This document shows positions 30,823-60,811 of a stretch of DNA of 64,000 nucleotides, piece by piece. The notes under the pieces were generated by a model. That model was not told where the DNA came from and ran no database searches. It worked only from the letters and a program-made list of their open reading frames with translations. Each line of letters begins with the position of its first letter. Positions within the stretch are counted from its first letter, which is position 1. Source of the stretch: an uncultured virus (IMG/VR IMGVR_UViG_3300035505_000652). Taxonomy: Duplodnaviria > Heunggongvirae > Uroviricota > Caudoviricetes. The DNA lies in the IMG/VR virus record IMGVR_UViG_3300035505_000652. The stretch is one strand, 5' to 3'. The position numbers and the translations under genes are program-made.

Positions 30823-31190
30823 TTATACTACTTTACATTAAGGTTCTTAAGAAATGAGGGATGAAAATGCCATTTTAAATAAAATCCACACAATCCTATA
30901 AAAATTTAAAACCTTCCTTTTAAATTTAAAGCCATACCTTATATATATTCAAAGCTTCATATGCTTATTTAAAACAATAAAAGGAAATCCTTTACCATTT
31001 AAATAAATACAAACTCCATTTTCTTCTCAAAATTAAAAGCACCTCCTTTAATTTAGAAGGATGCCATATCTTTAAATTTAATAAGAGCTTCCCTTTTATT
31101 TTGAAAAAAGTTATTTATTTACCGCAGGGGCTTTCCCTATCCCAATGGATTGTTATACTACTTTACATTAAGGTTCTTAAGAAATGAGGG
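30823..31190 (+). repeat. Perfect 38-bp direct repeat downstream of rep (candidate origin element)
   Basis: TTATACTACTTTACATTAAGGTTCTTAAGAAATGAGGG at 30823-30860 and 31153-31190. Confidence 0.85.
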
Positions 31191-31445
31191 TTAAAAAGAG
31201 TATTTTTAGCAAAAAGAATAAAAACAAATGATTATAAAAATTAAAAATGAGGTTGGATTTGGAATTTTAAAGAATGATTTTGACTTGGAAATTGACATGG
31301 TTTTAAAAGCAAGCACCAAAACAAAGCCTTAGTGCTTGACCAAAACTTAAATAAACTTTTCCTTTTTATTTTTTTGAAAAATTTTAAAAAGAAAATCCCA
31401 TATTAAATTATATGATAGGCTGGAAGCCTATCCCATAAAAGGGTA

Positions 31446-38570: not shown

Positions 38571-41500
38571 TTAATCTTCTTTATTTTTGTGGATTTTAAA
38601 CTTTTTAAGGCTTAAGAACATTCCAGCAATCGCCGTCATTCCTGCACCAGCCATGGCGAAAATGTTGTTATTGTCGCCAGTTTGTACTGCAGTTGTCTTA
38701 TTCTTTTCAAGTTCAAAGATTACAGTTGTCTTCACATTGTTCTTGATTGTGATGGTTTGGTCGCTTGGAGCTTTGTATCCTTCTGGAACACTAATAACCT
38801 TAATTGTATAGTCTCCAACAGGAAGCTTATCCTTGCTTACCTTTCCATTTTCATCAGTTGTAGTTGTAAGGATTACATTGCCGTCCTCGTCAACAATCTG
38901 CACTGTCGCATTAGGAATTGGGTCTTTTGTATCCTTATCTCTTACAATGACATCCAATGCGCCTGTATTCTTTTCAAGTTCAAAGATTACATTTGTTGTT
39001 GTGCTCTTTTCTACAGTCGCTTTTTGGTCATCTGGCTTGTTATATCCATCAGGCACTTCTGTAACCTTGATTGTATATTCTCCAATTGTAAGGTCATTCT
39101 TTACAACTTTTCCATTAGCATCTGTCTTTGTTGTGGCTACAACATTGCCGTCCTTATCAAGGATTTCCACTGTAGCATTAGGAATTGGCTCTTTTGTATC
39201 CTTGTCTCTTACAAGCACGTCCAAATTGCCTACGCCCTTTTCAACCTCGAAAATAAGGCTTGTTGTCTTGCCCTTTTCAACTGTACAAGGCGTGTCTGCA
39301 GGTCTTGAATATCCATCAGGAACCTTTGTTACCTTTACATTGTATGAGCCGATAGCCATATTCTCCTTGGTGTATTTGCCCTTTGAATCTGTTGTGGTTG
39401 TAAGGACTACATTGCCGTCCTTGTCGCAAATCTCAATAGTCGCATTTGCGATTGGGTCTTTTGTATCCTTATCCCTTACAAGCACATCCAAATTGCCATA
39501 GCCTTTTTCAAGTTCGAAGATGGTTGTGGTTGTTTCATTGTTCTTAACAGTTGCTGTCTGGTTGTCTGGAATTACATATCCATTAGGTACTTCTGTAACC
39601 TTGATTGTGTAATCCCCTGCAGGAAGCTTATCCTTGCTTACTTTTCCATTTGTGTCTGTCGTTGTTGTAAGCACAACCTTGCCATCCTTGTCAAGGATTT
39701 CCACTGTCGCATTAGGGATTGGCTTCTTTGTATCCTTATCCCTTACAATGACATCAAGATTTCCAACAGCCTTTTCAAGCTCAAAGATTACTTCCTTCTT
39801 ATCTCCAGCTTCAATTGTAACTGTTTGGTCATCTGGCTTGTTGTATCCATCAGGCACTTCTGTAACCTTGATTGTGTAATCCCCTGCAGGAAGCTTGTCT
39901 TTCTCAACCTTGCCGTTTTCATCAGTCTTGACTGTATCAATGACCTTGCCATCCTTGTCAAGGATTTCCACTGTCGCATTAGGGATTGGGTCCTTTGTAT
40001 CCTTGTCCCTTACAATAACATCAAGGTCTCCAGTATTCTTTTCAAGTTCAAAGATTACCTCTTTTGTATCATCAGGGATAATTGTAACTGTTTGGTCATC
40101 TGGCTTGTTGTACCCGTCAGGCACTTCTGTAACCTTGATTGTGTAATCCCCAGGTGGAAGCTTGTCTTTCTCAACCTTGCCGTTTTCATCAGTTTTGACT
40201 GTATCAATAACATTGCCATCCTTATCAATGATTTCTACTGTCGCATCAGGGATTGGGTCTTTTGTGTCCTTATCCCTTACAATAACATCAAGGTCTCCAG
40301 TAGCTTTTTCAAGTTCGATAACAACAGAAGTCTCTTCATTCTTCTTTACTGTTGCAGTCTCATCATCTGGCTTGCTGTATCCATCAGGTACTTCTGTAAC
40401 CTTGATTGTATAATCTCCAAGAGGAAGGTCTTTTTCAGATACTTGGCCGTTCTCATCTGTCTTGACTGTATTGATAACGTTGCCTTCCTTGTCAATGATT
40501 TCCACTGTGGCGTTAGGGATTGGCTCTTTTGTTTCCTTGTCCTGTACTGTTACAAGCAAGTCGCCTACGCCTTTTTCAAGTTCAAATTCAAAGTGTGTAT
40601 TCTCATTTTTATTAACAGTCTTGGTCTGGTCATCTGGAGTTGAATATCCTTGTGGAACATCTGTTACCTTCAAGGTGTAATCGCCTATAGGGAGCTTATC
40701 CTTGCTTGCCTCTCCATTCTCATCAGTTACAACTGTATCAACAAGTTCTCTATTCTTGTCATAGATTTCAACTGTAGCATTAGGGATTTTAATGGTTGGG
40801 TCGTCTTTATCATAAACAACAATATCCAAGCTGCCCTTGCTCTTTTCAACTTCAAATATAAAGGTTTTGTTTTGGCCGTTTGAAATTGTATCATCTTGCG
40901 CTTCTGGAAGCTCATATCCATCAGGAACATCTGTAACGCTTACTGTGAAGTGGTTTGGTTCAAGACCGTCCACGCTGTCAGTTCCATCTGTATTTGTTGT
41001 AAGGTCAAATTTGTCAGCATTATCTGGCAATACCTCTACAGTTACATCCTCTATAAACTCCCCTGTATCCTTATCTTTAACAATAACTGTCAAGGCGCAC
41101 TCTTCCTTATCTGCTAGGTCTACATACAAGTAAAGTGTTGTTACCTTTCCATCTGTTGTAGCAGCTTCCAAGGTTTCAGTGCATGTTTCTGTATTGATTT
41201 TATATCCTTCAGGAACAGATACAAGCGAAGCTGTATATGTGCCTGCCAATACTGCTTTCTGGTCTGCATCCCCAGACTTTGATGTTCCAGTATAAGAGAA
41301 ATCTGCATCCTCTTTCTCTTTAACCTCAAATTCTGCACCAGCAATAGCCTTATCAGTTGTTCTATCCTTTACAACAACCTGAATGCTTTGAGCCACCTCT
41401 TGTGGTTCTTGATTTTTCGAATCATCCTCTTCTGGGATTTTATACAACTCAATATACTGCGTCACTGTTCCATCTTTTTCAACAACAAAATTAAAGTTTT

Positions 41501-42572
41501 CGTCATTGTCTGGGTCTGCAAGGGCATAACCTTCTGGGATTTGGGATACAGTCATGGGAATAGTTTGGAGAATGACACCATCTGCCTCGGCTTCGCCTTT
41601 AGCATCTGTTGTCATGTTTGAAACTTTTCTCACATCAACATAATTCGCCCCAAAAGTTGTTCCCATTGAAATTTGACTTGCAGCATATCCATCATCATCA
41701 CCATACCAAGTTGAAAAAGAATCTCCTAACATTTTCTTAGCGCTATCTATTTGTTCTTGCGTGATAGCCAAGCTTTCATCTACATTAGGGGAAACAACCA
41801 CGCCTTCAACATAGTTGCCTGTTTGGATAAAGCTTCCATCTACAGTGGTTGTTGGGCCTTCGCTTGTGCCCTCAACTTCAACAGCTACAACTTTTACATT
41901 GCCTGTTGAAACGGAACTGCTTGGTTTCTTTATTGTTTCAGCACATTCAACGTCAATGCTTGTCATTCTCCCACTTTTTACTTCAAATGGAATATGCTGG
42001 TAATAACCGCTTTCTCCAAATCCACCATCATCACCGTTTGCATATACCAATATATATTTACCAACTGGCAATTCAATGTATGTAGGCTTTCCTGTATCAA
42101 TACCAACCTCAGCATCATATTCCTTGACATTTCCTTTAGCATCAACCCAAATTTTATCATCCCAACCAATTGTATGGAATGTTGTAACATATGTTGCATT
42201 TGATAAATCATAATTATCTGCAGCCTCGCCATTGATTGTGGAAGATTTTTTGCTGCTAGAGATTTCATCATCATCAGATATTTTATAAACTTGTACTTGA
42301 CGATTAATATAGCCGGTACCACCACCTGAAGCATCTTGTATTTGAAGCGAAAGACCAGTGTTTGTTGTAATTTTTTTATTCGTTCTACAATCATTAAGCT
42401 CCCCGTATGTAACCTTATCTGCATTTTCAGCAGTCATATGTTGTTCTATAATTGCTTTGTTTGATGCAGATTGAGATGCTGCATATACAACAACGCTTCC
42501 CATTTGAGCCATGGCAGGCGCCATTACTGTTGAAGCTGCAAGCATTGCAGCTGTCATTTTTTTCTTACTCAT
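38571..42572 (-). CDS. Sortase-anchored surface protein with CnaB/SpaA-type repeats (1333 aa)
   Basis: Signal peptide. Eight conserved 89-aa repeats plus about two diverged ones (GDLDVIVRDKDTKDPIPNATVEI...TDENG...LPxGDYTIKVTEVPDGY...FELEK). C-terminal VQTGD, hydrophobic stretch and Lys-rich tail. Confidence 0.9.
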   Translation of the reverse strand: MSKKKMTAAMLAASTVMAPAMAQMGSVVVYAASQSASNKAIIEQHMTAENADKVTYGELNDCRTNKKITTNTGLSLQIQDASGGGTGYINRQVQVYKISDDDEISSSKKSSTINGEAADNYDLSNATYVTTFHTIGWDDKIWVDAKGNVKEYDAEVGIDTGKPTYIELPVGKYILVYANGDDGGFGESGYYQHIPFEVKSGRMTSIDVECAETIKKPSSSVSTGNVKVVAVEVEGTSEGPTTTVDGSFIQTGNYVEGVVVSPNVDESLAITQEQIDSAKKMLGDSFSTWYGDDDGYAASQISMGTTFGANYVDVRKVSNMTTDAKGEAEADGVILQTIPMTVSQIPEGYALADPDNDENFNFVVEKDGTVTQYIELYKIPEEDDSKNQEPQEVAQSIQVVVKDRTTDKAIAGAEFEVKEKEDADFSYTGTSKSGDADQKAVLAGTYTASLVSVPEGYKINTETCTETLEAATTDGKVTTLYLYVDLADKEECALTVIVKDKDTGEFIEDVTVEVLPDNADKFDLTTNTDGTDSVDGLEPNHFTVSVTDVPDGYELPEAQDDTISNGQNKTFIFEVEKSKGSLDIVVYDKDDPTIKIPNATVEIYDKNRELVDTVVTDENGEASKDKLPIGDYTLKVTDVPQGYSTPDDQTKTVNKNENTHFEFELEKGVGDLLVTVQDKETKEPIPNATVEIIDKEGNVINTVKTDENGQVSEKDLPLGDYTIKVTEVPDGYSKPDDETATVKKNEETSVVIELEKATGDLDVIVRDKDTKDPIPDATVEIIDKDGNVIDTVKTDENGKVEKDKLPPGDYTIKVTEVPDGYNKPDDQTVTIIPDDTKEVIFELEKNTGDLDVIVRDKDTKDPIPNATVEILDKDGKVIDTVKTDENGKVEKDKLPAGDYTIKVTEVPDGYNKPDDQTVTIEAGDKKEVIFELEKAVGNLDVIVRDKDTKKPIPNATVEILDKDGKVVLTTTTDTNGKVSKDKLPAGDYTIKVTEVPNGYVIPDNQTATVKNNETTTTIFELEKGYGNLDVLVRDKDTKDPIANATIEICDKDGNVVLTTTTDSKGKYTKENMAIGSYNVKVTKVPDGYSRPADTPCTVEKGKTTSLIFEVEKGVGNLDVLVRDKDTKEPIPNATVEILDKDGNVVATTKTDANGKVVKNDLTIGEYTIKVTEVPDGYNKPDDQKATVEKSTTTNVIFELEKNTGALDVIVRDKDTKDPIPNATVQIVDEDGNVILTTTTDENGKVSKDKLPVGDYTIKVISVPEGYKAPSDQTITIKNNVKTTVIFELEKNKTTAVQTGDNNNIFAMAGAGMTAIAGMFLSLKKFKIHKNKED
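38700..40840 (-). repeat. 267-bp tandem coding repeats (8 units)
   Basis: Near-identical units with a 267-bp period, e.g. 39895 vs 40162. Confidence 0.85.
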
Positions 42573-44275: not shown

Positions 44276-45571
44276 TTATTTTTTAGCTTTGGAGGAATCA
44301 GCATCTTCCTTGGTTGTTTCATCTTCGGTCGAGCCTTCTTCCTCATCTGTTAAGGTTTCTTCTTCAACTTCCTCTGGTTCTTCCAATAATTGGAATTTGG
44401 CATTCAAAGTATCCTCAATTGCTTTTGTAGTCTCGCTTGTATAAATCAATGAATTGAGGTAATCTCCCACCATGGTCTTTAATTCATCACTGTATACCAT
44501 TTCATTTGCTTCAATTGCAAGGGTGGTCTTTTCCAATACATCTGCAATAGTGGTATCTTCATTTGCTTCCTGTATTTCAATATATTTTTCCAAGATTTCC
44601 TCATTGAATGTGTTTGTTGAATCAACAAATTGGGTATGGGACAATCCAAGCAATAATTGGTAATAATAAACCAATGATGAGGTATATTTGTCTATCATTA
44701 TATTGTAATATTCTTCATCAAGCTTCAATCCGTCTTCTAACATATTAATCCTTGTAACAATTTCATCAAGGTCATAAAGGTTGTTGCTTGACAACAATGT
44801 TGTATTATTCATTTCATAATTATTAAACTCTATATAGGCAATCATGCTTGGGGATATATAATCCCTATATTTTTCCAAGAAATTTGACAAATCCAAGTCG
44901 ATATAGAAATCCTTGTTGTCATTGAGGCTGTTCATAAAGAAGCCCTTTTCCTTTACCTCCAACAAAAATCCCTTTACCGTTCCATAATTGTTTGGAATGC
45001 TTTCTATGCTTGTTTTGTCATTAACTGATATATTATAGGTTTCGACAACAGTTTCCAAATCATATCCGACAACGCCCAAAATGGAGTTCAAGTTATTCAT
45101 CAAATCATAAAGGGAGTTTATATATTTCTTAATCATCATATCCCTCTCCCTTAAATCAAAGCTTGCTATGTTGGAATCTATCAAAGTAACCAAGTCATCA
45201 AGCTCTTCTTTGTTTGTAACCTTCCTGTTGTCAATGGATTTCAAAACCTTGTTTTTTTCATCCTTGCTCATGACTTTAGCATCTTCAATTTTGCTTGCTT
45301 TTTCAATAGTGTTGCTTGTGCTGGCAATATCCTCGACAGCTTCCCTTGCTTCCTTTGTTGCAGTGGAGGCTTCCGTCTCTGCCTCGACTTCTATCTGATG
45401 GCTTGCATCTTTAGCTATAGTCATTACAGACGGGGTTTCATAATCCAATACCATTGCATTTTCATCTATATCCAATGAGACGGTTTCAATTTCATCTTCT
45501 GCGGCATTTCTGCATCCAGCAAGCGTCAATATCATAATGCCGGTTATTATAAGTAAAGAATGTTTTTTCAA
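44276..45571 (-). CDS. Acidic lipoprotein, unknown function
   Basis: TTG start with AAGGAAGGTG RBS. Lipobox LAGC at residue 20. Acidic C-terminal tail. Confidence 0.8.
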   Translation of the reverse strand: MKKHSLLIITGIMILTLAGCRNAAEDEIETVSLDIDENAMVLDYETPSVMTIAKDASHQIEVEAETEASTATKEAREAVEDIASTSNTIEKASKIEDAKVMSKDEKNKVLKSIDNRKVTNKEELDDLVTLIDSNIASFDLRERDMMIKKYINSLYDLMNNLNSILGVVGYDLETVVETYNISVNDKTSIESIPNNYGTVKGFLLEVKEKGFFMNSLNDNKDFYIDLDLSNFLEKYRDYISPSMIAYIEFNNYEMNNTTLLSSNNLYDLDEIVTRINMLEDGLKLDEEYYNIMIDKYTSSLVYYYQLLLGLSHTQFVDSTNTFNEEILEKYIEIQEANEDTTIADVLEKTTLAIEANEMVYSDELKTMVGDYLNSLIYTSETTKAIEDTLNAKFQLLEEPEEVEEETLTDEEEGSTEDETTKEDADSSKAKK

Positions 45572-45572
45572 A

Positions 45573-46499
45573 TTATTGCACCTTCCTTATTTCCAATTTT
45601 TTTATCTTGTTTCTGCTTACCTTTATATTATATGCAAATTTTTCCACGTTGAACAGTCTTAATGGTTCAAGCAGATGTCTTGGATAGTTTGGCATTATTA
45701 CAAACATCCTTATATTTTTATGGGGGTATCTTTTTTGTATCTCCATGGGGTAATATGCGCATTGCCAGACAATTCTTTTGTCTGCCTTTATCTTTAATTC
45801 TATTATAACTATTCCATCATTTGCATCTTTTGCAAGGATATCAATTCTTCCCTCATCAAGGATAATCTGCCTTCCCATATAGGTCAAACCTTCCTCAATG
45901 TCTTCAAGATGTTGTATGATGTAATCCTCCAAGTCATTTTCAAACACCCCTTCAATAACATCATCCTCTCCTAAAACCCAGCTGATTTCATCTTCCAAGG
46001 ATGGGTTTATTGATTGGGAGAAGCCTTTGATGGTTATATTCTTAATTTCATTGACATCATACAGTTCATTAAGCCTTTCCAATTTAAATAAAATCAAATA
46101 TTGCTTTTCCTTGTTTTTATTCTTTCCAAACATTATGCTTGAATATTTTTGCTTTGCATATTTGGAAATCCCAATTAATTCCTGTTCCACATCCGCTGTA
46201 TGGTTCAAGTGCCATGAATACAAGATGTTTTTAAGGTTGTTTATTGGGGGGATAAAGCCTATCTTGCATTTTTTGTATTCATAGGATGTTATATTAAGCT
46301 CATTGAATATAAAGTCAAAAAATATTTGGCAATTAATATCTGTATACTTATATGACTTGATTGGATTTTCCTTGTATTCCATAAAAATAAAAAACCTCTC
46401 CATAATGAATGGAAGCAGACTGTCGTCATCCAATCCAAACCTTCTTTTCAATCCCTTCCATAAAACCTCTTCCAATTCATCTTCATAATTTATATCCAT
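45573..46499 (-). CDS. NucS/EndoMS-like (DUF91) PD-(D/E)XK endonuclease domain protein
   Basis: C-terminal ENDLEDYI...GRQ...GRIDILAKD...IVIIELK...Q...Y. The N-terminal half is unrecognised. Confidence 0.7.
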   Translation of the reverse strand: MDINYEDELEEVLWKGLKRRFGLDDDSLLPFIMERFFIFMEYKENPIKSYKYTDINCQIFFDFIFNELNITSYEYKKCKIGFIPPINNLKNILYSWHLNHTADVEQELIGISKYAKQKYSSIMFGKNKNKEKQYLILFKLERLNELYDVNEIKNITIKGFSQSINPSLEDEISWVLGEDDVIEGVFENDLEDYIIQHLEDIEEGLTYMGRQIILDEGRIDILAKDANDGIVIIELKIKADKRIVWQCAYYPMEIQKRYPHKNIRMFVIMPNYPRHLLEPLRLFNVEKFAYNIKVSRNKIKKLEIRKVQ

Positions 46500-46549
46500 A
46501 TAAAATATTCCTTCCATTTTTAAACAATTATCAAACCTTTAAATTAAAG

Positions 46550-46581: not shown

Positions 46582-46767
46582 TTAAAACAAACTTAGTACT
46601 GATGCCATTAATAGGTTTATAAGCTCTATAAACCCTATGCTTATAATTGAAGCAACTGCGACTATTATATATTCTTTGCCGACCTGCTTTTTGCTTGGCC
46701 AAACAACGCTTTTAAATTCATTGACAAACTCAACCAAGAATGCTGGCTTTTTAAATTTTTTCTTCAT
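46582..46767 (-). CDS. secE: Preprotein translocase subunit SecE
   Basis: EFKSVVWPSKKQV (ExxKVxWP motif) followed by a single TM. GGAGGG RBS. Immediately downstream of secY. Confidence 0.85.
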   Translation of the reverse strand: MKKKFKKPAFLVEFVNEFKSVVWPSKKQVGKEYIIVAVASIISIGFIELINLLMASVLSLF

Positions 46768-46781
46768 TATAAAACCCTCCA

Positions 46782-48107
46782 TTAAAATAAGAAACTTGAT
46801 GAAGAGCTTTCAAGCTGCTCTGATTCAATTATCTTATATGTTTCCAAAATAACGCCTACAACAATTATAATTGAAGTTCCTCCAAATGAGAGGCTTGAAA
46901 CATTAAACAATGATGAAATAATCATTGGAATTGTAGTAACCACTATAAGACACACGCTTCCCACGTTCCTTAATGTTTTTAACTTCTTGTCAAGATATTC
47001 CTCTGTAGGCTTTCCAGGCCTAATTCCAAGAATTACCCCTCCAGACTTCCTTAAATTATCAGCAACCTCTTCTGGATTGAATACCAATGTCGAATAGAAA
47101 TAAGCAAATGCGAATATCAATACGCAATAAAGGATAAATCCAAGATTATATAATGGATGGGTTATCTGGAACCAATTGCTTGAAGATAACGCTTGTGAAA
47201 TCTTATAGAAGATATTGCTTGAATCTACTCCAATCAATGTGACTATCAATATATACATTTGGAATAAGCTGTTTGTAAAGATGATTGGCATAACTCCTGC
47301 GATATTCACTTTTAATGGGATAAAGTTGCTTGCCTTGCTTGTGAGGCTCTTCATTCCCTTTACCTGTGACGAATATTGGGTTTTAACCCTTTTCTCACCG
47401 TCTTGAAGATATATAATTCCAATCAATGTGATTGATACAACCAAGAAGCATACGACTATTGTGGCTATCCAGCCGATTATGCCGTTATCCTTTATAAACA
47501 TTTCATATATGGTGCTTATATCTCCAGGAAATCTTGAAAGGATGTTCATTAAAAGTATTAATGAAATGCCATTTCCAAGCCCTTTCTTGTCTATAAGGCT
47601 TCCAAGAAAGATTTCAACTATTGAACCTATAACCAATGAAACTGATACTATTGTAATATAAAATGCATTGTTTTCAACAAGAAGACCATATGAGGCAAAT
47701 CCCAAAGTGATTGGAATTGCTTGGATAATCGCCAACACTCCAGCTACTATGTAATTCAACCTTTTGTATTTATCCTGTCCAACCTTGCCGTCTTTTGCCA
47801 TTTCATCCAATGCAGGCACGATTACCCTTAACAATTGCAATACGATTGACGCTGAAATATATGGGGTGATGCCTATAACGAAAATGGACATTTGTGAAAA
47901 CGAGTTACCAGAAAACATTGCAAACAAGCCAAACGCATTTCCTGTCTCAGAATTTAAGAATTGTGTCAATATCTCCCTGTTTATACCAAAGGTGGGGATA
48001 TTTGACAATATTTGGATAATGAATAATATTACCAAAGTAAACAATATCTTATGGGTTAGTTCTTTGTTTGAAAAAATATTGCTCTTTTTAGTTCTTTTTA
48101 CTGACAT
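46782..48107 (-). CDS. secY: Preprotein translocase subunit SecY
   Basis: KILFTL, SIFVIGITPYISASIVLQLL, KGLGNGISL, IPLKVNIAGVMPIIF, GIRPGKPTEEYL, FGGTSIIIVVGV. Start set to MSVKR after GAAAGGA. Confidence 0.95.
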   Translation of the reverse strand: MSVKRTKKSNIFSNKELTHKILFTLVILFIIQILSNIPTFGINREILTQFLNSETGNAFGLFAMFSGNSFSQMSIFVIGITPYISASIVLQLLRVIVPALDEMAKDGKVGQDKYKRLNYIVAGVLAIIQAIPITLGFASYGLLVENNAFYITIVSVSLVIGSIVEIFLGSLIDKKGLGNGISLILLMNILSRFPGDISTIYEMFIKDNGIIGWIATIVVCFLVVSITLIGIIYLQDGEKRVKTQYSSQVKGMKSLTSKASNFIPLKVNIAGVMPIIFTNSLFQMYILIVTLIGVDSSNIFYKISQALSSSNWFQITHPLYNLGFILYCVLIFAFAYFYSTLVFNPEEVADNLRKSGGVILGIRPGKPTEEYLDKKLKTLRNVGSVCLIVVTTIPMIISSLFNVSSLSFGGTSIIIVVGVILETYKIIESEQLESSSSSFLF

Positions 48108-48280
48108 ATAAAAATTCCTTTCTTTTTTAATACTTATCAATATTATAGCAAAAAATTGCATAATAGTAAAGCTTTTTATGCATGATTAAGATTTTTTTAT
48201 TAAGAAAAAATTTTAGGGGATTGGAATATAAAAGAAAAAGAAGCTTGAAAAACAAGAAATTCAAGCCTCTTTGGGTTTAA

Positions 48281-48496
48281 TTAAAAACCATGTGGTCCTC
48301 TTGGTCTGCCGCCATGTCCTGGTCCTCCATGTCCATGTGGACCTCCCTGGCCTGGACCTCCTTGTGGTGGAGGTGGCATTCCTGGTCCTCCATGTCCATG
48401 TGGACCACCTTGGCCTGGACCGCCAAAGCCTGGTCCTCCCTGTGGTGGTGGAGGTGGTGTTCCTGGACCTCCATGTGGTCTGTGATTTCCAAACAT
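48281..48496 (-). CDS. 71-aa Gly/Pro/His-rich low-complexity peptide
   Basis: GAAAGGA RBS then MFGNHRPHGGPGTPPPPPQGGPGFGGPGQGGPHGHGGPGMPPPPQGGPGQGGPHGHGGPGHGGRPRGPHGF. A/T-ending Gly/Pro codons fit this frame. Confidence 0.6.
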   Translation of the reverse strand: MFGNHRPHGGPGTPPPPPQGGPGFGGPGQGGPHGHGGPGMPPPPQGGPGQGGPHGHGGPGHGGRPRGPHGF

Positions 48497-48636
48497 ATAA
48501 TCAAATCCTTTCTTATTTATTTTTTTCGCACACAAAATAATTATATGTGCTGCAATTAAATATTATCATTTAGAAGCATTTCAATCAATGTAAAAATTGA
48601 ATTATGTCATATAAAATTATTTTTAGTTTGTTAAAA

Positions 48637-49158
48637 TTATGCCAATCCTAAATGATTTTTCAAGGCTTGATTAAGTTCAACCATACCCTCTTCATTCAAT
48701 GTCGCTATCTTGTATCCCAATTGAGCCTTACTGACAGTCCTAATCTGCTCTGCCTTTGCAGTCCCGCTTACAGATTGTTCTGAATCTGCCTTAACCTTTA
48801 TTATTTTTGAATCATTTATTACAAATTGCGTCTTGAAGTTGAACTCCGCCCTTGTAATAGGGATTATGGTGGTACAATTGCTGTTGTCATTAAACTCATC
48901 ATAGGAAACTATAATGCATGGCCTAACCTTGTTCATAACATCCCCCACATTTATTCCAAGGTCAACGCTCCATATCTCCCCTTTCTTGGGGACAGCCTGC
49001 TTGTACATTCTTTCTTCAATATCATAACTTATAATCTTTAATGCCCACTTTTCCAAATCAACAATCTTATCCTTGTCTTTTTGATTCATATAAAGCATTG
49101 TTTCCAATTTGTGTTTTACTTTATTATGTTCAGTTAAATCAAATTCTGGTCTATCCAT
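48637..49158 (-). CDS. PemK/MazF-family endoribonuclease with N-terminal extension
   Basis: KKGEIWSVDLG.NVG...KVRPCIIVS...TTIIPIT...AEQIRTVSK. GGAGG RBS before MDRPEF. Confidence 0.85.
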   Translation of the reverse strand: MDRPEFDLTEHNKVKHKLETMLYMNQKDKDKIVDLEKWALKIISYDIEERMYKQAVPKKGEIWSVDLGINVGDVMNKVRPCIIVSYDEFNDNSNCTTIIPITRAEFNFKTQFVINDSKIIKVKADSEQSVSGTAKAEQIRTVSKAQLGYKIATLNEEGMVELNQALKNHLGLA

Positions 49159-49218
49159 TAATACGTCCTCCGTAAATCTCTCCCAATTGATAATGTTAAG
49201 ATGCAACCTTGTGGATTA

Positions 49219-52200
49219 TTAATCCACAAAGTTGAATATATTCTTAACAATGTCTTTCTTGATGTTGTAATTCATATTTTCAAATAATTGGAAGCCTTCT
49301 TTTGCATAGAGCCTTACAGGGTCTTCCCCTCGATAAGACATTAATTTTATATCCTGTTTCAACTCATTCATGTCAACCAAGTGCTTAATCCAATAATTAT
49401 CAACAACAGTCAAAATGATTGTTGATGGGCTTGGCACCGGCGTATTTGCATTTTCAAGCTTTTCCTTGTATTTTTCAAATAATGATTTGCCGTAAGCTAA
49501 AATTTCTTCAAATGACTTTCCAGTAATTTCATTCTCCTTCATATGAAATTCCTTGACAAAATACTTCACAAAATCCTCATTGCTGATTTCATTATACTCC
49601 CTTGTAAGAACAACCTCGACCATGTTATCTATCAAAGGGGTGCAGTCATGGGTAAGCACGTAATCCCTTTGCTCATAAATGTCAATTCTCTGGTTGTTTA
49701 GGATTTTATCATATTTTGTTGTATTCTTCCTTGTTTCAAAGTGCTGGCTTTCAAGCTTTTTCTGACAGTTGCTTATAATGTTTGAAAACAACTTATTGCT
49801 GACAGGAAGCTCATCGCTTTGGTCAAGGTTTTCAATCTTTTTGAGTTTGTCTGATGTGATATAGGTTATAAGCTCGTCTTGGAATGAAAGATAGAATTGG
49901 GATTCCCCTGGGTCTCCCTGCCTTCCGCTTCTTCCCTTCAACTGGTTGTCAATCCTTCTATTTGACGCCCTTTCTGAAGCTATAATCTTCAATCCTCCAA
50001 GCTTCCTTGTCTCATCAGTAAGCTTTATATCTGTTCCACGTCCAGCCATGTTTGTCGCAATCGTGACAGCTCCCTTCTGCCCCGCGTCTGCTACAATCTT
50101 GGCTTCCCATTCAATCTGCTTGGCATTCAATAAATGGTGGGGTATCCCTTCCTGCTTCAACAAGTTTGACAATTCCTCGCTTTTCGCTATATCAAGGGTT
50201 CCAACCAATACAGGTCTGCCAATCTTATAATTTTCTTTTATATCCTCAATAATGGCTTTGTTCTTAGCCTTCTCTGTCACGAATATTATATCATGCTTGT
50301 CATTCCTTATACATGGCTTGTTTGTCGGGATGACGACAACCTTCAATCCATAGGTTTCCTTAAACTCCTTCTCCTCCGTCTTGGCGGTACCTGTCATTCC
50401 AGAAAACTTTTCATATTGCTTGAAGAAGTTTTGGTATGTGATGCTTGCCATTGTAATGGATTCTTCTTTTACATATACGCCTTCCTTTGCTTCCAAGGCT
50501 TGGTGGAGGCCGTTTGAAAACCTTCTTCCCTCTGCAATCCTTCCTGTATGCTCATCAATAAGGATTACCTGACCGTCCTTGACGATATATTCCTTATCCT
50601 TCTTCATATCAAGGTTCGCCCTTAAAGATTGTTCCAAATGATGCCTTAACAATGTATTTTCAATATCAGAATAATTTTTTAATCCAAAAAACTTTTCTGC
50701 CTTGGTTACTCCAATCTCAGACAATGTTATAAGCTTTAATTGCTTGTCGATTTCATAATCATCTGGCTTTAAGTGCTTTACGAATACATCACAAATGGTG
50801 TAAAGGTCATTTGCAGACCCGCTTGGTGATGATATAATCAAAGGCGTTCTTGCCTCGTCTATAAGGATGCTGTCCGCCTCATCTATTATGCAAAACGAGA
50901 ATGGCTTGCATTGGACTTTATTGTTGATGTTCTTAACCATGTTGTCCCTTAAATAGTCAAATCCCAATTCAGAGTTGGTTATATAGATGACATCCTTTGC
51001 ATAAATATCCCTTCTGTCTGCGCTGGGCGTGTCATGGATTATACAATCCACGCTCAATCCAAGGAACTCATATAACGGCTTCAATGTCTCCATATCCCTG
51101 TTTGCAAGATAATCATTTACCGTCACTACATGGACCGACTTGCCGCTTAATGCATTCAAGTATGCTGGGGCGACTGTTACAAGGGTATTGTGTGTTACGA
51201 CATATTGCCCTACAAGGAACAAATGCTCGTCATTATCAACCTCAAAGCAAACCTGCTCTTCCATTCTATTGAGGTATTCAATGCTTACAATTTCAATTTT
51301 TGAAATATCCTCTTTTGATGAAGCTTCTTTGTCTGCAAGGGCTTTGAATTTATCAACATCATTTGTAAATATGCTTACAATGTATTGTTCATTTTCATCC
51401 TTGCCGCAACTGCATGATAATCCCAAGGAATAAACGACTTCCATGAAATCATCCTTTAAATCCTCTGAATATGTTGAGAATGTCAAAGCCTCATTTTCTT
51501 TAATGAAGTTGATGTTGCCTGAAGCCTCCAGCATACCCTTAACCAAATCCCATCTTTGCTCAATTGATGAAACCTTGTAAATGGAAGGGATTCTTCTTTC
51601 CTTCAAAATAGTCCTTGTCATTTCATCATTTTCTATTTTGAAATCATAATTGCTTTTTGTCTTTGAAATGCTTGAAACAAGGCTTCCAAGCTGATAAGAC
51701 GGATATGGAAGTTCCTGCTCATCATATTCAACAGCTGAACATAATGGAATATAAAGCTTCCCATGTCTTTTCATTAATTCCTGCGTAGTAAATGTCAATA
51801 AAGCGTTCCCTTCATAAATGCTCCATAAATGCTCGCCTGCGCACTCAATCTCTCTGCTGTCTGCCAAAGTAACCTTATAAACGCCAATCATTCCCTGCGG
51901 ATATACTCCAATAACCTTTGTAGGCTTTCCAAGTCTGTCAAATAAATAATCCCCAACTTTGATATCCCCTACAACCTTCCATCCTTTTGGCGTCGGGATT
52001 GGAGTGTTTATTGGATTTGCTTTTCCTTCTCCAGTCTTCATTTCAGCAATCTTTCCTTGGTGGAGGACTACCCCGCCAATCATTTGTACATCATAAGGCC
52101 TCATTCCTAAAACCCTGTCACTTGCTTCTCTTACAACTGCGAATGCTTCTGGGAGGATTTGCTCCAGTTTTTTACCCTGTTTAATCTGTTCTTTAAAATA

Positions 52201-52305
52201 AGGTGTCTTGGCTTGCAATTCTTCATCAGACAAATTCTTCATTTCATCTGCATAAGAATTAATTTTTTTAACGTATTTTCTTGTTATGTTGCTAACCTGA
52301 CTCAT
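49219..52305 (-). CDS. secA: Preprotein translocase ATPase SecA, intein-containing, lacking C-terminal SEC-C zinc finger
   Basis: AFAVVREA, IAEMKTGEGK/TL, VHVVTVNDYLA, DEADSILIDEARTPLIIS, GMTGTA, ATNMAGRGTDI, RRIDNQLKGRSGRQGDPG. GGAGGT RBS before MSQVS. Confidence 0.95.
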   Translation of the reverse strand: MSQVSNITRKYVKKINSYADEMKNLSDEELQAKTPYFKEQIKQGKKLEQILPEAFAVVREASDRVLGMRPYDVQMIGGVVLHQGKIAEMKTGEGKANPINTPIPTPKGWKVVGDIKVGDYLFDRLGKPTKVIGVYPQGMIGVYKVTLADSREIECAGEHLWSIYEGNALLTFTTQELMKRHGKLYIPLCSAVEYDEQELPYPSYQLGSLVSSISKTKSNYDFKIENDEMTRTILKERRIPSIYKVSSIEQRWDLVKGMLEASGNINFIKENEALTFSTYSEDLKDDFMEVVYSLGLSCSCGKDENEQYIVSIFTNDVDKFKALADKEASSKEDISKIEIVSIEYLNRMEEQVCFEVDNDEHLFLVGQYVVTHNTLVTVAPAYLNALSGKSVHVVTVNDYLANRDMETLKPLYEFLGLSVDCIIHDTPSADRRDIYAKDVIYITNSELGFDYLRDNMVKNINNKVQCKPFSFCIIDEADSILIDEARTPLIISSPSGSANDLYTICDVFVKHLKPDDYEIDKQLKLITLSEIGVTKAEKFFGLKNYSDIENTLLRHHLEQSLRANLDMKKDKEYIVKDGQVILIDEHTGRIAEGRRFSNGLHQALEAKEGVYVKEESITMASITYQNFFKQYEKFSGMTGTAKTEEKEFKETYGLKVVVIPTNKPCIRNDKHDIIFVTEKAKNKAIIEDIKENYKIGRPVLVGTLDIAKSEELSNLLKQEGIPHHLLNAKQIEWEAKIVADAGQKGAVTIATNMAGRGTDIKLTDETRKLGGLKIIASERASNRRIDNQLKGRSGRQGDPGESQFYLSFQDELITYITSDKLKKIENLDQSDELPVSNKLFSNIISNCQKKLESQHFETRKNTTKYDKILNNQRIDIYEQRDYVLTHDCTPLIDNMVEVVLTREYNEISNEDFVKYFVKEFHMKENEITGKSFEEILAYGKSLFEKYKEKLENANTPVPSPSTIILTVVDNYWIKHLVDMNELKQDIKLMSYRGEDPVRLYAKEGFQLFENMNYNIKKDIVKNIFNFVD
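51187..52020 (-). mobile_element. Class-3 intein (278 aa) with degenerate LAGLIDADG endonuclease, inserted in SecA Walker A
   Basis: GEGK|ANPINTPIPTPKGW...ECAGEHLWSI...QVCFEVDNDEHLFLVGQYVVTHN|TLV. Removing it restores GEGKTL. Confidence 0.92.
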
Positions 52306-52879
52306 AAATATAAAATTACCTCCAAAAAAATTCCTTTCACAATTTTTTTTATTATACAAAATTTTTTTTAAACTTTCAAGTGTTTTTTTGTTTGAACTTT
52401 AACATATTTGTCAGTTTTTAAAAGATATTGTCTTAAAAAAACTTTTAATAAGTAAAATTTTAAAAAGTTTGCTTGAATAAAAATTGTGGCTTGTTCTAAA
52501 ATTGTAGATTTTGCTATTTTAATATATAACCTACATTCACCAGTTTTACAAAAGCATCATTCCATAAAACCAATGAAAGTAGGTTGTCTTTTTTTGTTTT
52601 AAACTATAGGGAAACAATACAGCTCAAATTGAATAAGTTGCAATTCAAGCTTAAAGATGTTTTTCTTATATTAATATATGCTTTTAATATAGGGGAATTT
52701 GGAAAATTTTGCCTTATAATGGGATTTTTACAAAAATATTTTGTAAACAAAATTCTTTTAATAAAAAAGTTCTAGACATTATTGGCATGTTTTATATGGT
52801 TTTGCGTATAATTAAATTGAAACCTATAAACATAAATAAGGAAAATCTAAAAAGATTTATTAAAGAAAGGAGATTTTTT

Positions 52880-56731: not shown

Positions 56732-59700
56732 ATGAAGATTACACTAAATAACGAAAAACTGCTTGAGAATATAAGGAAGGAATTAGATGAGGCGAATGCC
56801 AACGTCAAAAACCCGAATGAATTTCTAACATGCAGGAAGGAAGGAGATACAATAAATGTGTACCTTAATGTAAACAACAACAAGGTGATGAGCTTCCCAG
56901 CGAAGTATGCTCCATGTTTTAATTACAAAGACACATTTGTTGGTAAGATAGATTTTGAAAAGGATGCCTTACAAATTGTTACGTTTGCAGACCTGCATAC
57001 GCATACAGAGTATTCCATCCTTGACGGTGCGAACAGAATAAAGGACTTGTCCAAGAAATATGCATATTATGGAGCGATAACAGACCATGGCGTTATGTAT
57101 GGCGTTGTTGATTTCTATAAGAAAATGCATGACCAGCATAAGCATCCAATTATTGGATTTGAAGCCTATACCGATTCTTGGGAGGCTTTCACAATGCTTC
57201 CATTGGATGAGACAAGTGCAGACGAGAAGTTAAAGCTTACAAAGGTTAACAAAGACTGCAAATACCATCTTATTCTGCTTGCAAAAAATGAGACAGGATA
57301 CAAAAACCTTGTCAAGTTATGTTCATTTGGCCAATCCCATAAGGGAGGGGCTTATACCCAGAGGCCGAAGGTTTACTATGAAGAACTTCTCGCACATAAG
57401 GAAGGCATTGTAGTATTATCTGCTTGTATCGCAGGCGAGCTTCCAACATTATTAGCTTATGGAAAGTATGATGAGGCTAGAAAGATGGTTGCATTCTTCA
57501 AGGAGAATTTTGGGGATGACTATTATCTTGAAATCCAAAGACATGCTTATTCCAAAAGCGAATTTGAAAGCAAATATATTGAAAAGCTTTCGCTTGAACT
57601 TGGGCTTCCAATTACTTATGATGAGGTTGAAAAAGCCTATCTTCAAGTTTTGGATGGAACAATGACCAAGAAGGATTTCAAAGCCCGTTATACCAAGAAA
57701 ATCTATGATGAGATGGAGCTTGTTGTAAAAGAGGATAGAACCAACAAGGGAATTGAGCAGCTTGCAAAAGAGTTTGATGTTAAGGTTGTCGCTACTACAG
57801 ACGCGCACTACCTTAATGAAGATGACGCTTATATGCATGATGCTTTGCTTTGCAACCAGGTAGGCAAAAAGATTACAGACACAGAGCGTTTCCAATTCAA
57901 TGGAAAAGGATATTATGTCCATACCGTTGAGGAAATGGAGCAATTATATAATGACAAGCCTGAAGTTTTAATCAATACCCTTGAAGTTGCAGAGAAGTGT
58001 GTATTTGATTTCAAGTTTGGAGAATACAAGCTTCCAAAATTCCCAATCCCAGCCGGCTATACTGACAAGGAGTATCTGAGAAAGTTAGCTTATGATGGAT
58101 TTGAGGAGAGGTTCAAATGGCTTCCAACCAAAAAGAAGGAAGAATACAAGGCAAGGCTTGAATTTGAGTTAAGCGTAATCTTCAAGATGGGATATCAGGG
58201 ATATTTCTTCATTGTTTGGGATTACATCAGATATGCAAAGCAGAATGGAATATATGTAGGTCCAGGACGTGGTTCTGGCGCCGGCAGTATTGTTCTATAT
58301 TGTCTGCATATTACAGAGAACCTTGACCCAATCAAGTATGAGCTTCTGTTTGAGAGATTTTTGAATCCAGACAGAATAAGCATGCCTGATATTGATGTTG
58401 ACTTTGAGTTTGAGCTTAGAGAAAATGTTATAAGCTATTGCAAGCAGAAGTATGGTGAGGAATGCGTGTCAAGAATTATCACTTTTGGTACAATGGCAGC
58501 AAAGGCAGCTGTAGCTGATATGTGCAGGGTTTTGGATTATCCTATTGAGCTTGGAACAAAAATCAAGAAATTGATACCAAATGACGTAGGAATGACAATC
58601 AAAAAGGCAATGCTTGAAAACCAAGAATTAACAGACCTTTACAATTCAGACCCACAGGCTAAAGAGGTTATAGACCTTTCAATTAAGGTTGAAGGCTTAA
58701 AGAAGAACACATCAGTTCATGCTTGCGGCGTTGTTATCTCTGATGCGGACATCACCAATTATTGTCCTCAGACATTCACAAAGGATGATGATACAGGCGA
58801 ATATATCCGTACAACCCAGTTTACAATGGGAGAGTGTGAGGAGATTGGACTTTTAAAAATGGATTTCCTTGGCTTAAGAACAGAATCCGTAATCAAGGAG
58901 GCTATCAATGACATAAAGGCTCATTATGGGGTATCCATAAATCATTATGACACAACCAGCCTTCCATTGAATGACGTGTATGTTTATGCAAACGTACTTG
59001 CCACAGGCAAAACGGTTGGAGTATTCCAGCTTGAGTCCAGTGGAATTACAAGCACGATAATGCAGTTATACCAAGACATCCCAGCAAAGGTAAAGGCTAT
59101 AGATTCCAGCAACGTATTGACAGAGGAGGCAAAGCAAAAGCAGAGGGAGGAACTTGGAGACCAGTGTTTTGAACGTTTGATTGCCGGTATTTCATTATAC
59201 CGTCCAGGTCCCATGGATGAAATCCCTAATTACATCAATGGTATGTTGGATGAGAAAAACATCCACTACGATTGCAAGCAATTAGAGCCAATCCTTAAGA
59301 ACACATACGGAGTAATCGTCTACCAAGAGCAGGTTATGCTTATAGTAAGGGCTTTAGCTGGATTTACACCAGGTCAGTCTGATACCATCAGAAAAGCCAT
59401 GGGTAAGAAAAAGCAGGAAATCCTTGATGAGTACAAGCCATATTTCATCAATGGTTCTGGAAATGATATTGACCCCCATACTGGAAAGCCATATGGTATT
59501 GTAGGATGTAAGGCTAATGGAATTAATGAGATAGTCGCCAACACAATTTGGAGCAAGATGGAGAGCTTTGCAAAATATGCATTCAACAAGTCCCATGCTG
59601 CTGCTTATGCCGTTGTAGCTATACAGACTGCTTGGCTTGCATACTATTATCCTATAATATTCCTTAAAGCGAACTTAAACGTTTACAAGGGAAACCATGA

Positions 59701-60811
59701 CAAATTAAAGTTCTACTTGAATTATGGCAGCAAGATGGGATTCCAGATTTTACCGCCATCTATAAACCAGTCAGATGTAAACTTCACATTAAGTGAGGAT
59801 GCTAACAGCATTATTTTTGGTTTAAGCGGAATTAAGTGCGTGGGCAAGATTTCCAAGAATATCATCCTTGAAAGAAAGGAAAGAGGTTTGTTTACGACAT
59901 ACCAAAACTTCCTTGAAAGAATGATTAAGTATCAGGGAATTAATAAGAAGGCAGTTGAGGCATTAATCAAGGTTGGAGCTTTGGATTGTTTCGGAGGTTC
60001 AAGAAAGAGCAAGATGGATTATCTTGATACTTTTATAGCCTTGGTAAAATCCGACAAATCAATTGCAATGCCTGGTCAGGAGACGATTTACGAGCTTGCA
60101 GAAGAGACGCTTGAAGCTGAGAATGTAAAGCTTCTTAAAAATATAGAAATCCCAAACGAGGATGTCGAATATGAAAAAGGTCAATTCCTTGATTTCGAAT
60201 ACGAGTTTGCTAGTTTCTATATTACAGAGCATCCTCTTGATGAATACAAAGCTGTAATCACTCTTAATAAGTGTGAGGATATAGCAACAATACTTGACAA
60301 GGGTGAAAGCCTTAATGCAAATGAGGAATTTGAAAGCCAGATTTCAGGTATTATAACAAGCGCGCAAAAACGCTATGGAAGGAACAACAAGCCATTCATG
60401 ACATTTACTATAGATGATGCATCTGGTTCAATGGGCGGCGTGGCTTGGAATAATGTGCTTGAAATGGATGAAAGTGCATTTGAAGAAGGTACAAAGGTTA
60501 TCCTTTCTGGAAGGATTTCCAAAAATGATTTTGGAACACAAATTGCAGTTTCAGATGTAACAAAGCTTGAGTCTTTAAATAACAGCCATATTACATTGGA
60601 ATTATATGCGTTTGAAGATTCGAATCTTGTAGCAGCTCAATGGTACAAAATTTATGACCTTTGCAACAGTGTGCCTGAAGGTCCAATGCATATTTCATTT
60701 ATCAAGGATAATACAGCATTTCCTATGAAATCATGTCCTTGGAGCATAGACTTATATACAAAGCTTCGAGATATATGCACTGAGAAGAATATTAAATATT
60801 CTGTTCGATAA
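56732..60811 (+). CDS. dnaE: DNA polymerase III alpha subunit (DnaE)
   Basis: PHP domain (LHTHTEYSILDGA, AITDHG, HLILLAKN, TTDAHY), GPGRGSGAGS, PDIDVD, LLKMDFLGL, AFNKSHA and a C-terminal OB fold. AAAGGAG RBS. Confidence 0.95.
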   Translation: MKITLNNEKLLENIRKELDEANANVKNPNEFLTCRKEGDTINVYLNVNNNKVMSFPAKYAPCFNYKDTFVGKIDFEKDALQIVTFADLHTHTEYSILDGANRIKDLSKKYAYYGAITDHGVMYGVVDFYKKMHDQHKHPIIGFEAYTDSWEAFTMLPLDETSADEKLKLTKVNKDCKYHLILLAKNETGYKNLVKLCSFGQSHKGGAYTQRPKVYYEELLAHKEGIVVLSACIAGELPTLLAYGKYDEARKMVAFFKENFGDDYYLEIQRHAYSKSEFESKYIEKLSLELGLPITYDEVEKAYLQVLDGTMTKKDFKARYTKKIYDEMELVVKEDRTNKGIEQLAKEFDVKVVATTDAHYLNEDDAYMHDALLCNQVGKKITDTERFQFNGKGYYVHTVEEMEQLYNDKPEVLINTLEVAEKCVFDFKFGEYKLPKFPIPAGYTDKEYLRKLAYDGFEERFKWLPTKKKEEYKARLEFELSVIFKMGYQGYFFIVWDYIRYAKQNGIYVGPGRGSGAGSIVLYCLHITENLDPIKYELLFERFLNPDRISMPDIDVDFEFELRENVISYCKQKYGEECVSRIITFGTMAAKAAVADMCRVLDYPIELGTKIKKLIPNDVGMTIKKAMLENQELTDLYNSDPQAKEVIDLSIKVEGLKKNTSVHACGVVISDADITNYCPQTFTKDDDTGEYIRTTQFTMGECEEIGLLKMDFLGLRTESVIKEAINDIKAHYGVSINHYDTTSLPLNDVYVYANVLATGKTVGVFQLESSGITSTIMQLYQDIPAKVKAIDSSNVLTEEAKQKQREELGDQCFERLIAGISLYRPGPMDEIPNYINGMLDEKNIHYDCKQLEPILKNTYGVIVYQEQVMLIVRALAGFTPGQSDTIRKAMGKKKQEILDEYKPYFINGSGNDIDPHTGKPYGIVGCKANGINEIVANTIWSKMESFAKYAFNKSHAAAYAVVAIQTAWLAYYYPIIFLKANLNVYKGNHDKLKFYLNYGSKMGFQILPPSINQSDVNFTLSEDANSIIFGLSGIKCVGKISKNIILERKERGLFTTYQNFLERMIKYQGINKKAVEALIKVGALDCFGGSRKSKMDYLDTFIALVKSDKSIAMPGQETIYELAEETLEAENVKLLKNIEIPNEDVEYEKGQFLDFEYEFASFYITEHPLDEYKAVITLNKCEDIATILDKGESLNANEEFESQISGIITSAQKRYGRNNKPFMTFTIDDASGSMGGVAWNNVLEMDESAFEEGTKVILSGRISKNDFGTQIAVSDVTKLESLNNSHITLELYAFEDSNLVAAQWYKIYDLCNSVPEGPMHISFIKDNTAFPMKSCPWSIDLYTKLRDICTEKNIKYSVR

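Follow-up and report, generated by a model that had tools for sequence, protein, structure and literature searches.

A probably accessory secA, secY and secE gene set on a plasmid-like stretch of DNA related to Bacillota megaplasmids

The Sec translocon is regarded as core chromosomal machinery, with housekeeping secY placed in the spc operon (L15-secY-adk) and housekeeping secE adjoining nusG. The 64,000-nucleotide (nt) IMG/VR record IMGVR_UViG_3300035505_000652, filed as an uncultured virus and referred to here in its whole length as the window, raises the question of what secA, secY and secE are doing together away from both of these neighborhoods. An initial annotation, made from the letters alone, had proposed a distinct, mobile accessory Sec translocon on a Rep-bearing element that also encodes giant surface proteins. 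We consider it reasonably probable that the window is part of a very large, ORFan-rich, low-GC (guanine-plus-cytosine) plasmid-like element of Gram-positive gut Bacillota, equipped with an accessory Sec set for its own cargo. The sec genes are probably not the chromosome's housekeeping copies, and by sequence comparison the element is most likely a distant relative of the isolate megaplasmids BTB_502p and pJFP838A. We infer its extrachromosomal state, its host, splicing of the motor protein, the partnership of SecA with SecYE and the choice of substrates.

The sec genes, their type and an intein in the motor

The list of open reading frames (ORFs) and the family scans place secA, a PemK/MazF-like gene, secY and secE in one orientation, all on the minus strand. 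The first of these, secA (49219..52305, minus strand), encodes a precursor of 1028 amino acids (aa) that matches the Pfam families SecA_DEAD, P-loop_SecA, SecA_PP_bind and SecA_SW. Upstream of it lies a promoter-like site (52351..52379, minus strand; TTGAAA-17-TATAAT, 11/12), which is a consensus match only, in a region that holds 47 such sites versus 42.8 expected by chance. The PemK/MazF-like gene (48637..49206, minus strand; 189 aa; PF02452, E = 7.5e-21; phrog_1936, E = 6.2e-21) is directly downstream of secA. For secY (minus strand; PF00344, E = 5e-83), the longest ORF extends to 48161, yet we favor a start at 48107 (46782..48107; 441 aa) because relatives measure 436 to 451 aa and because a promoter-like TTTACT-17-TGcTATAAT precedes the gene at 48142-48170. 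Directly behind it, as the initial annotation had described, follows secE (46582..46767 likely, ORF to 46782, minus strand; 61 aa; PF00584, E = 7.5e-10), whose GGAGGG ribosome-binding site overlaps the end of secY and which has a hairpin on its 3' side.

The cluster is interrupted, since the PemK/MazF-like gene and a 71-aa ORF (48281..48496, minus strand) separate secA from secY. This small ORF contains a 15-nt tandem repeat and is followed on its 3' side by a hairpin and a T-run; given this terminator-like hairpin of its own between the PemK-like gene and secY, the cluster looks like at least two units, one of secA and the PemK-like gene and one of secY and secE. The 71-aa product consists almost wholly of Gly, Pro and His, encoded by about eight copies of the repeat; a ribosome-binding site is present and a signal peptide is not apparent. 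Contigs from RNA libraries span the ORF, and the bin 48308-48791 has the second-highest depth in run X1.

Scans with Pfam, NCBIfam and PHROGs took in ORFs of at least 60 aa between 28 and 64 kb, and among these we found no ribosomal protein, adk, nusG, Asp protein, glycosyltransferase or SecG. SecG, Rep and sortase had no match even at a Pfam E value of ≤1 among the small or unknown ORFs of the window. The initial picture of a co-oriented secA, secY and secE without ribosomal-protein, adk or nusG neighbors and without secG is confirmed by these scans and by the ORF list.

Which type of Sec system do these genes represent? SecA scores above the cutoffs of the canonical models (NF009538, 919.7 versus 814; TIGR00963, 888.7 versus 800), as do SecY (TIGR00967, 325.2 versus 253.6) and SecE (TIGR00964, 38.6 versus 27.55). 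Scores fall below the cutoffs of the SecA2 model TIGR03714 (754.6 versus 930) and of the SecY2 models TIGR02920 (127 versus 249.6) and NF009082 (130.5 versus 353). The streptococcal and staphylococcal SecA2/SecY2 system uses Asp proteins and glycosyltransferases; Asp1-3, glycosyltransferases and a serine-rich repeat substrate were not found in the scanned ORFs. A SecA2/SecY2 identity was therefore rejected, every NCBIfam model of that system being missed and the canonical ones passed, and the window set differs from it as the initial annotation had maintained. The SecA2-only type of Listeria, the B. anthracis group and Mycobacterium was also rejected, on missed cutoffs (TIGR04397, 821.6 versus 1085; NF012136, 629.5 versus 1100; TIGR04221, 554.4 versus 725) and on tree placement: the second SecA of Bacillus sp. 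N5-665 and of Listeria, which we take to be SecA2 from its length and its missing zinc finger, branches with Bacilli and away from the window SecA. What the window has in common with the SecA2/SecY2 systems of streptococci and staphylococci and the SecA2-only systems of Listeria, Bacillus and Mycobacterium is a second, zinc-finger-less Sec motor, with or without a channel, and a link to large surface proteins.

The motor gene contains an intein of 278 aa (51187..52020, minus strand), which lies in the Walker A loop between GEGK and T; by translation its borders read GEGK/ANPIN...VVTHN/TLVT. Its removal from the precursor leaves a SecA of 750 aa, the length of the nearest relatives and also the length estimated initially. 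In phmmer searches of PDB the intein matched the DnaB intein 6bs8 (E = 1.6e-12) and the gp41-1 intein (E = 3.5e-12), in alignments that cover H-x-W, C-x-EVDN and THN; the Pfam Intein_splicing match is weak (E = 0.0033). Class 3 inteins have no Cys or Ser at position 1 and carry a block B Trp, a block F Cys and a block G Thr, and 6bs8 is presumably a member of this class. The SecA intein starts with Ala and has EHLW, VCFEVDN and VVTHN/T at the same positions as 6bs8, and its motifs accordingly place it, as a prediction, in class 3.

The DEAD, GRGTDI and GRSGRQGDPG motifs of SecA read as intact in the translation. The lack of a SEC-C zinc finger, another feature that had been pointed out from the letters alone, holds as well: PF02810 has no match in SecA, whose C-terminus reads ...NIFNFVD, and the housekeeping SecAs that we compared end in a CPCGSGKKYK.CC motif.

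Kinship with isolate megaplasmids and with housekeeping Sec proteins

Where does this motor come from? The best SecA match in PLSDB (tblastn) is on the B. thuringiensis 407 plasmid BTB_502p, at 51% identity. There, a dnaE gene, one of the two best-ranked DnaE matches (41%), lies about 8 kb from secA among hypothetical genes. The C. perfringens plasmid pJFP838A carries the same pair of secA and dnaE, at 50% and 40%, so plasmid-borne copies of secA had been annotated in isolates before. Two quick trees unite the window SecA clade and the SecAs of BTB_502p, pJFP838A and a Jeotgalibacillus plasmid in one group (100 by the Shimodaira-Hasegawa-like approximate likelihood ratio test [SH-aLRT]), from every member of which the zinc finger is absent; housekeeping SecAs of Clostridium, Lachnospiraceae, Bacillus and Listeria fall outside it.

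The window encodes a dnaE of the same megaplasmid type (56732..60811, plus strand; 1,359 aa), identified by Pfam, NCBIfam and tree. In a quick tree its product falls into one group (100 SH-aLRT) with the DnaEs encoded on BTB_502p, pSC2, pJFP838A and a C. difficile BI1 plasmid record, and the housekeeping DnaEs of Lachnospiraceae and Bacilli lie elsewhere. Judged by sequence, the window SecA and DnaE thus belong to what we term a megaplasmid-type lineage, a grouping of our own. In pJFP838A (L178) and the C. difficile BI1 record (L179), dnaE is annotated as two coding sequences about 660 to 770 nt apart, which suggests a gene split or interrupted at a similar place.

A tblastn search with all window ORFs, covering 100 kb of the 502-kb BTB_502p and 80 kb of the 404-kb pJFP838A, found secA, dnaE, PemK-like and lipoprotein genes on both plasmids. 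The PemK-like homologue on BTB_502p (40% over 102 aa, E = 1e-20) is annotated as a PemK/MazF toxin beside ParM/StbA, and that on pJFP838A is 37% identical (E = 6e-19). Homologues of the predicted lipoprotein reach 27% over 265 aa on pJFP838A (E = 5e-19) and 23% on BTB_502p (E = 5e-11). BTB_502p (501,911 bp), pJFP838A (404 kb) and the Jeotgalibacillus plasmid (603 kb) therefore resemble the window in their zinc-finger-less SecA lineage, at 46 to 51% identity, and in their low-GC, ORFan-rich backbones; the shared DnaE lineage and the PemK-like and lipoprotein homologues are likenesses established on the first two. The isolate plasmids differ in having no intein at the SecA site, judged from SecA lengths of 722 to 798 aa, and the shared genes are only 23 to 51% identical, which marks them as distant relatives. 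B. thuringiensis 407 and C. perfringens JFP838 have chromosomes apart from these plasmids, and the articles describe BTB_502p and pJFP838A as novel, with mostly hypothetical genes (70.2% hypothetical in pJFP838A), the term “secA” occurring 0 times in the available text of either (PMC3569317, PMC4747519). Within the limited literature searched, no paper came up in which a plasmid- or phage-borne secA is discussed.

Closer relatives of the window proteins come from metagenomes. SecA has about 62 relative clusters (52 to 84% identity, 726 to 823 aa), SEC-C being present in none of them, and housekeeping Clostridium SecAs follow at 48 to 51%. SecY has about 30, at 45 to 81% identity and from metagenomes only, followed by Lachnospiraceae housekeeping SecY at 43 to 44%; an alignment of 22 SecY sequences has 63 invariant columns. 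In a quick tree these SecY relatives form a clade (99 SH-aLRT) outside Lachnospiraceae housekeeping SecY, adjoined by long-branched SecYs from IMG/VR contigs. Neither SecA (100 SH-aLRT) nor SecY (99) falls inside a housekeeping clade, a placement that the initial annotation had put forward as a check on its proposal. In six pairs of SecY and SecA clusters, the longest contig has the same size (13077, 10067, 12064, 17943, 61863 and 151967 bp), and with two of these sizes at only 10 to 12 kb, linkage of secA and secY appears conserved. The long contigs that carry SecA or SecY relatives measure 464,774, 284,299, 229,853 and 151,967 bp.

The surroundings of secY are also unlike those of housekeeping copies. 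L15 and/or adk adjoin secY in 89 of 91 metagenome and genome loci among the matches listed, the two loci without them being contigs of 1.4 kb and 3.7 kb. Both genes are absent beside secY in 27 of 28 loci on large IMG/VR contigs, as they are in the window. One metagenome contig of 3,727 bp (L006), whose SecY is 41% identical to that of the window, has flanks without L15 or adk and may hold a stand-alone secY.

Genome and virus collections returned no close SecY. A sample of 399 Clostridia genomes gave a best identity of 43%, and a sample of 401 genomes from the family of the best-matching genome gave 0 hits at E ≤ 1e-115. A genome-contig scan with the single SecY returned only housekeeping loci at 40% identity, with insensitive patterns that are present in 3 of 29 clade members. 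A metagenome scan with SecY returned only loci at ≤43% identity among the matches listed, and neither SecY alone nor DnaE retrieved a relative in scans of IMG/VR.

Several observations weigh against an accessory, plasmid-borne set. SecA and SecY score as housekeeping “equivalogs” in NCBIfam. SecY is absent from BTB_502p and pJFP838A, which leaves a kinship of SecY-SecE with isolate plasmids conjectural. Relatives within the clade sit on contigs of up to 464,774 bp, and IMG/VR has no member of the SecY clade, even by patterns that fit 30 of 30 clade members; the gut megaplasmids known as Hodors, discussed below, are by contrast classed as viral. Relatives of the candidate replication protein, which resembles RepB', are on contigs of ≤32 kb, none of them matched in size to those of the SecA and SecY relatives. 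Sortase, signal peptidase and SecG are missing from the window, and so are partition, relaxase and type IV secretion system (T4SS) genes in all 64 kb; no contig end or circular junction is visible in it. Moreover, every tree is the product of a quick search with SH-aLRT as its sole support measure, and that of SecY includes long branches.

With neither a plasmid hallmark gene nor an end or junction, the window could also be part of an integrated island or a chromosome. If a chromosome, it might belong to an uncultured Clostridia lineage, fast-evolving and low in GC, that has these as its only, housekeeping Sec genes after loss of the spc and secE-nusG linkages. Such an origin would suit the passed equivalog models for SecA and SecY, the dnaE nearby, a diverse clade with conserved secA-secY linkage and contigs of that length, the absence from IMG/VR and the lack of plasmid hallmark genes. 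It would, however, leave the grouping of SecA and DnaE with isolate-megaplasmid genes rather than with any housekeeping clade to be explained, together with the four genes held in common with BTB_502p and pJFP838A. It also fits poorly with the L15 and/or adk genes kept beside secY at nearly all housekeeping loci, with the loss of the zinc finger, with a coding density of 75% and a majority of ORFans, and with the missing close SecY in the samples of 399 Clostridia and 401 single-family genomes. We regard it as improbable and return to an accessory set on a plasmid-like element.

Candidate cargo and other mobile Sec sets

What would such a set export? Three neighbors that the initial annotation had singled out carry the expected signals. 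A giant open frame of >9,333 aa (2..28000, minus strand), the 3' end of which lies outside the window, begins with an N-terminal Sec-type signal peptide, its SdrD_B-like repeats being confined to the distal, C-terminal part. A surface protein of 1,333 aa with SpaA/SdrD_B repeats (38571..42572, minus strand) has a signal peptide and an LPXTG-type anchor, and a predicted lipoprotein of 431 aa (44276..45571, minus strand) has the lipobox LTLAGC. All three are candidate substrates, and secY-secE lies within 4 to 19 kb of them.

In the mechanism that we propose, secA would be translated as an inactive precursor, because the 278-aa intein splits the Walker A loop, and protein splicing would restore GEGKT and with it the ATPase. 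SecA could then drive preproteins bearing signal peptides through the element-encoded SecY-SecE, with signal peptidases, lipoprotein processing, sortase and YidC supplied by the host. The likeliest cargo would be the protein of >9,333 aa, the LPXTG protein and the lipoprotein, and the set would give the element an export route of its own, private or supplementary, that moves along with the cargo. Contigs from four animal-gut RNA-library runs match secA with its intein, as well as secY, secE and dnaE, and show no differences, which hints at transcription of these genes. The same contigs leave the AT-rich spacers uncovered, and uncovered stretches prove nothing. One RNA contig joint skips 151 nt in the intein region; as a single contig with a 28-nt side, it is too weak to read.

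The closest described system is found on Hodors, conjugative megaplasmids of 211 to 389 kb from the human gut (Yuan et al., bioRxiv, February 2026, PMC12934698). According to the preprint, they carry a hyp-SecY-SecG-SecE operon, trigger factor, sortase B and two giant secreted proteins, and its authors propose that the sec operon exports the giant proteins. In supplementary table ST2, SecY appears for 38 of 38 genomes and a 1,380-aa DnaE for 27 of 38, and “SecA” is absent from both the main text and the part of the supplement searched (PMC12934698).

From what the preprint gives, Hodors and the window are alike in several ways: secY and secE stand alone, away from ribosomal-protein genes, on a giant plasmid-like element of Bacillota, a state we attribute to the window as well; both encode sortase substrates and giant surface proteins with signal peptides (7,309 to 7,704 aa in Hodors, >9,333 aa here); 27 of 38 Hodors share a DnaE, of about 1,380 aa; and a non-coding AT-rich region adjoins the replication gene. 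The differences are as numerous. The window has SecA, and SecG, trigger factor and sortase were not found in its 64 kb; its GC content is about 33% versus 44.6 to 47.1% in Hodors; the runs that hold its sequence are from animal gut rather than human gut; its replication gene is RepB'-like and not Rep_3; and its giant protein has SdrD_B-type repeats in place of S-layer/MBG domains. SecYs from Hodor-like loci (L097, L107 and L111, the first called Hodor by gene order) share 31 to 34% identity with the window SecY; in the tree they fall beside Oscillospiraceae and Monoglobus rather than in the window clade. The initial claim of a distinct system consequently stands in one respect and needs narrowing in another. 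The set is apart from SecA2/SecY2, but a plasmid-borne SecY(G)E module accompanied by giant proteins has already been described (PMC12934698), and plasmid secA genes had been annotated before. Added here to the known SecY-SecG-SecE modules are SecA and a set in which no SecG was found.

A second case of motor and channel on one mobile element is G793, a complete IMG/VR record of 199,477 bp with terminal repeats, which we read as a conjugative plasmid-like element. It has genes for a T4SS coupling protein, TraG-like, PrgI and ParM-like proteins, three sortases (in that scan), two signal peptidases and LPXTG pilins, and it encodes SecA, SecY and a DnaE of 1,390 aa. It resembles the window in combining both Sec components with surface-display genes, without an L2 gene or tRNA. 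It differs in that only SecY (39%), SecA (45%) and DnaE (30%) are shared and that its secA and secY are far apart. The nesting of its SecA in Lachnospiraceae housekeeping SecA suggests an independent, more recent capture.

Other IMG/VR contigs hold further arrangements. Stand-alone sets are present as secY-60aa-secA (L116, 9863-13464 of a 202-kb contig) and as secA-thioredoxin-secY-secG (L121, 6798-11458 of an 87-kb contig); the Sec proteins of both are very divergent, with long branches in both trees. A jumbo-phage-like record of 290,311 bp (G792/L094; 27% GC, 399 ORFs, a cluster of 33 tRNAs) has a SecY that adjoins GyrB/GyrA, a flotillin-like protein, FtsH and a 1,727-aa BspA-type leucine-rich-repeat protein, SecY (41%) being all that it has in common with the window.

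Taken in its fullest form, our interpretation is that an old, horizontally mobile, zinc-finger-less SecA lineage resides on giant Bacillota plasmids, in Bacilli as well as Clostridia, and was joined in the large, unbinned gut clade of the window by an element-borne SecY-SecE, as a complete and portable pathway dedicated to the element's own giant adhesins, with the P-loop intein making the motor conditional on splicing. We hold this version tentatively, as a possibility that falls short of an even chance.

An accessory and functional set need not be dedicated to giant proteins; it might raise general Sec capacity, or free the secretome of the element from compatibility with host Sec on its moves between distant Bacillota hosts. 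The megaplasmid-type SecA group includes plasmid SecAs from both Bacilli and Clostridia hosts, and in G793 the two sec genes, distant from each other, are not beside a single cargo gene. BTB_502p and pJFP838A have SecA without SecY, which implies that such a SecA must be able to use the host channel. Yet both the window and the Hodors combine sec genes with giant secreted proteins, and in the window secY-secE keeps close company with all three predicted substrates. We consider a set of this general kind unlikely, though clearly worth weighing beside the dedicated pathway.

The Hodor preprint indicates that gut megaplasmids can carry the channel (PMC12934698). The window, G793 and the isolate megaplasmids together suggest that the motor ATPase also travels on such elements, and that a separate SecA lineage is tied to plasmids in more than one class of Bacillota. 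Should the set serve giant surface proteins, a mobile element would be able to reshape the surface of its host without depending on the export capacity or compatibility of the host, which would bear on plasmid host range, gut colonization and the export of proteins of >9,000 aa. With a member of the SecA lineage on BTB_502p in B. thuringiensis 407, the question is testable in a culturable strain.

The replication gene and the remainder of the window

Does the window itself look like a mobile replicon? The term Rep-bearing in the initial annotation is upheld in part. The candidate replication protein, 503 aa with a C-terminal helix-turn-helix (31446..32957, minus strand), matches no Rep family in Pfam or NCBIfam, and by sequence only the helix-turn-helix matched PDB. 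Its AlphaFold2 (AF2) model (mean predicted local distance difference test [pLDDT] score, 86.2) aligns in Foldseek with the archaeo-eukaryotic primase (AEP) domain of PrimPol (6zp9, E = 7.2e-6) and with RSF1010 RepB' (3h20, E = 1.8e-5). The family, with 295 representatives, conserves DxD and RxPGSxNxK, and D167 and D169 are nearly invariant in 60 sequences; the nearest Atlas cluster is named “putative plasmid replication initiator.” On the strength of the model, the ORF is predicted to have a RepB'/PrimPol-type primase fold.

The claim of mobility is likewise supported in part, by the links of SecA, DnaE and the PemK-like and lipoprotein genes to isolate megaplasmids and by the presence of a primase-like gene; the extrachromosomal state of the contig is presumed.

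The primase gene also bears on a further alternative, in which the stretch is an integrated element (a genomic island, an integrated megaplasmid or resembling an integrative and conjugative element) in a chromosome and the Sec set is still accessory. Because the RepB'-like relatives occur on contigs of ≤32 kb and are unmatched to those of the Sec relatives, the gene may come from a small element nested in the larger one, as would suit mobile DNA inserted into mobile DNA; the PLSDB and IMG/VR analogues also indicate that such gene sets move. All SecA and DnaE relatives of known context, on the other hand, come from records deposited as plasmids or from one with terminal repeats, and no integrase or tRNA gene was seen in the window. 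We give integration little weight relative to a plasmid-like element. Three clusters of RepB'-like relatives are on contigs of 31,370, 32,058 and 32,229 bp and may point to a plasmid or phage family of about 32 kb.

An AT-rich stretch of 1.5 kb without ORFs (29919..31445, 24% GC) adjoins the primase gene and might contain an origin. No iterons or iteron array were found beside this gene, DnaA boxes number 27 versus 28.6 expected and form no cluster, and GC skew follows the coding strand, so that neither of the latter two points to an origin. A 62-nt direct repeat (85% identity) occurs at 30823 and 31153.

The coding fraction over 28 to 64 kb is 0.75, versus 0.90 to 0.91 in G792 and G793. Outside the giant gene, AT-rich spacers of 21 to 27% GC reach 1.5 kb, and alternative genetic codes do not fill these gaps. 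Long AT-rich (21 to 24% GC), ORF-free stretches are seen at 28001-31445, 43496-44275 and 54634-55358. Searches for tRNA and Rfam families gave no match in the 64 kb, and most window ORFs have no family match.

Two further ORFs on the minus strand have family matches. Next to the sec genes, 45573..46517 encodes a 314-aa protein with a NucS-like PD-(D/E)XK nuclease domain (PF01939, E = 5.8e-11; PF14281). A 148-aa ORF (37970-38416) weakly matches the N-terminal part of peptidase M50 (site-2 protease) and may be a fragment.

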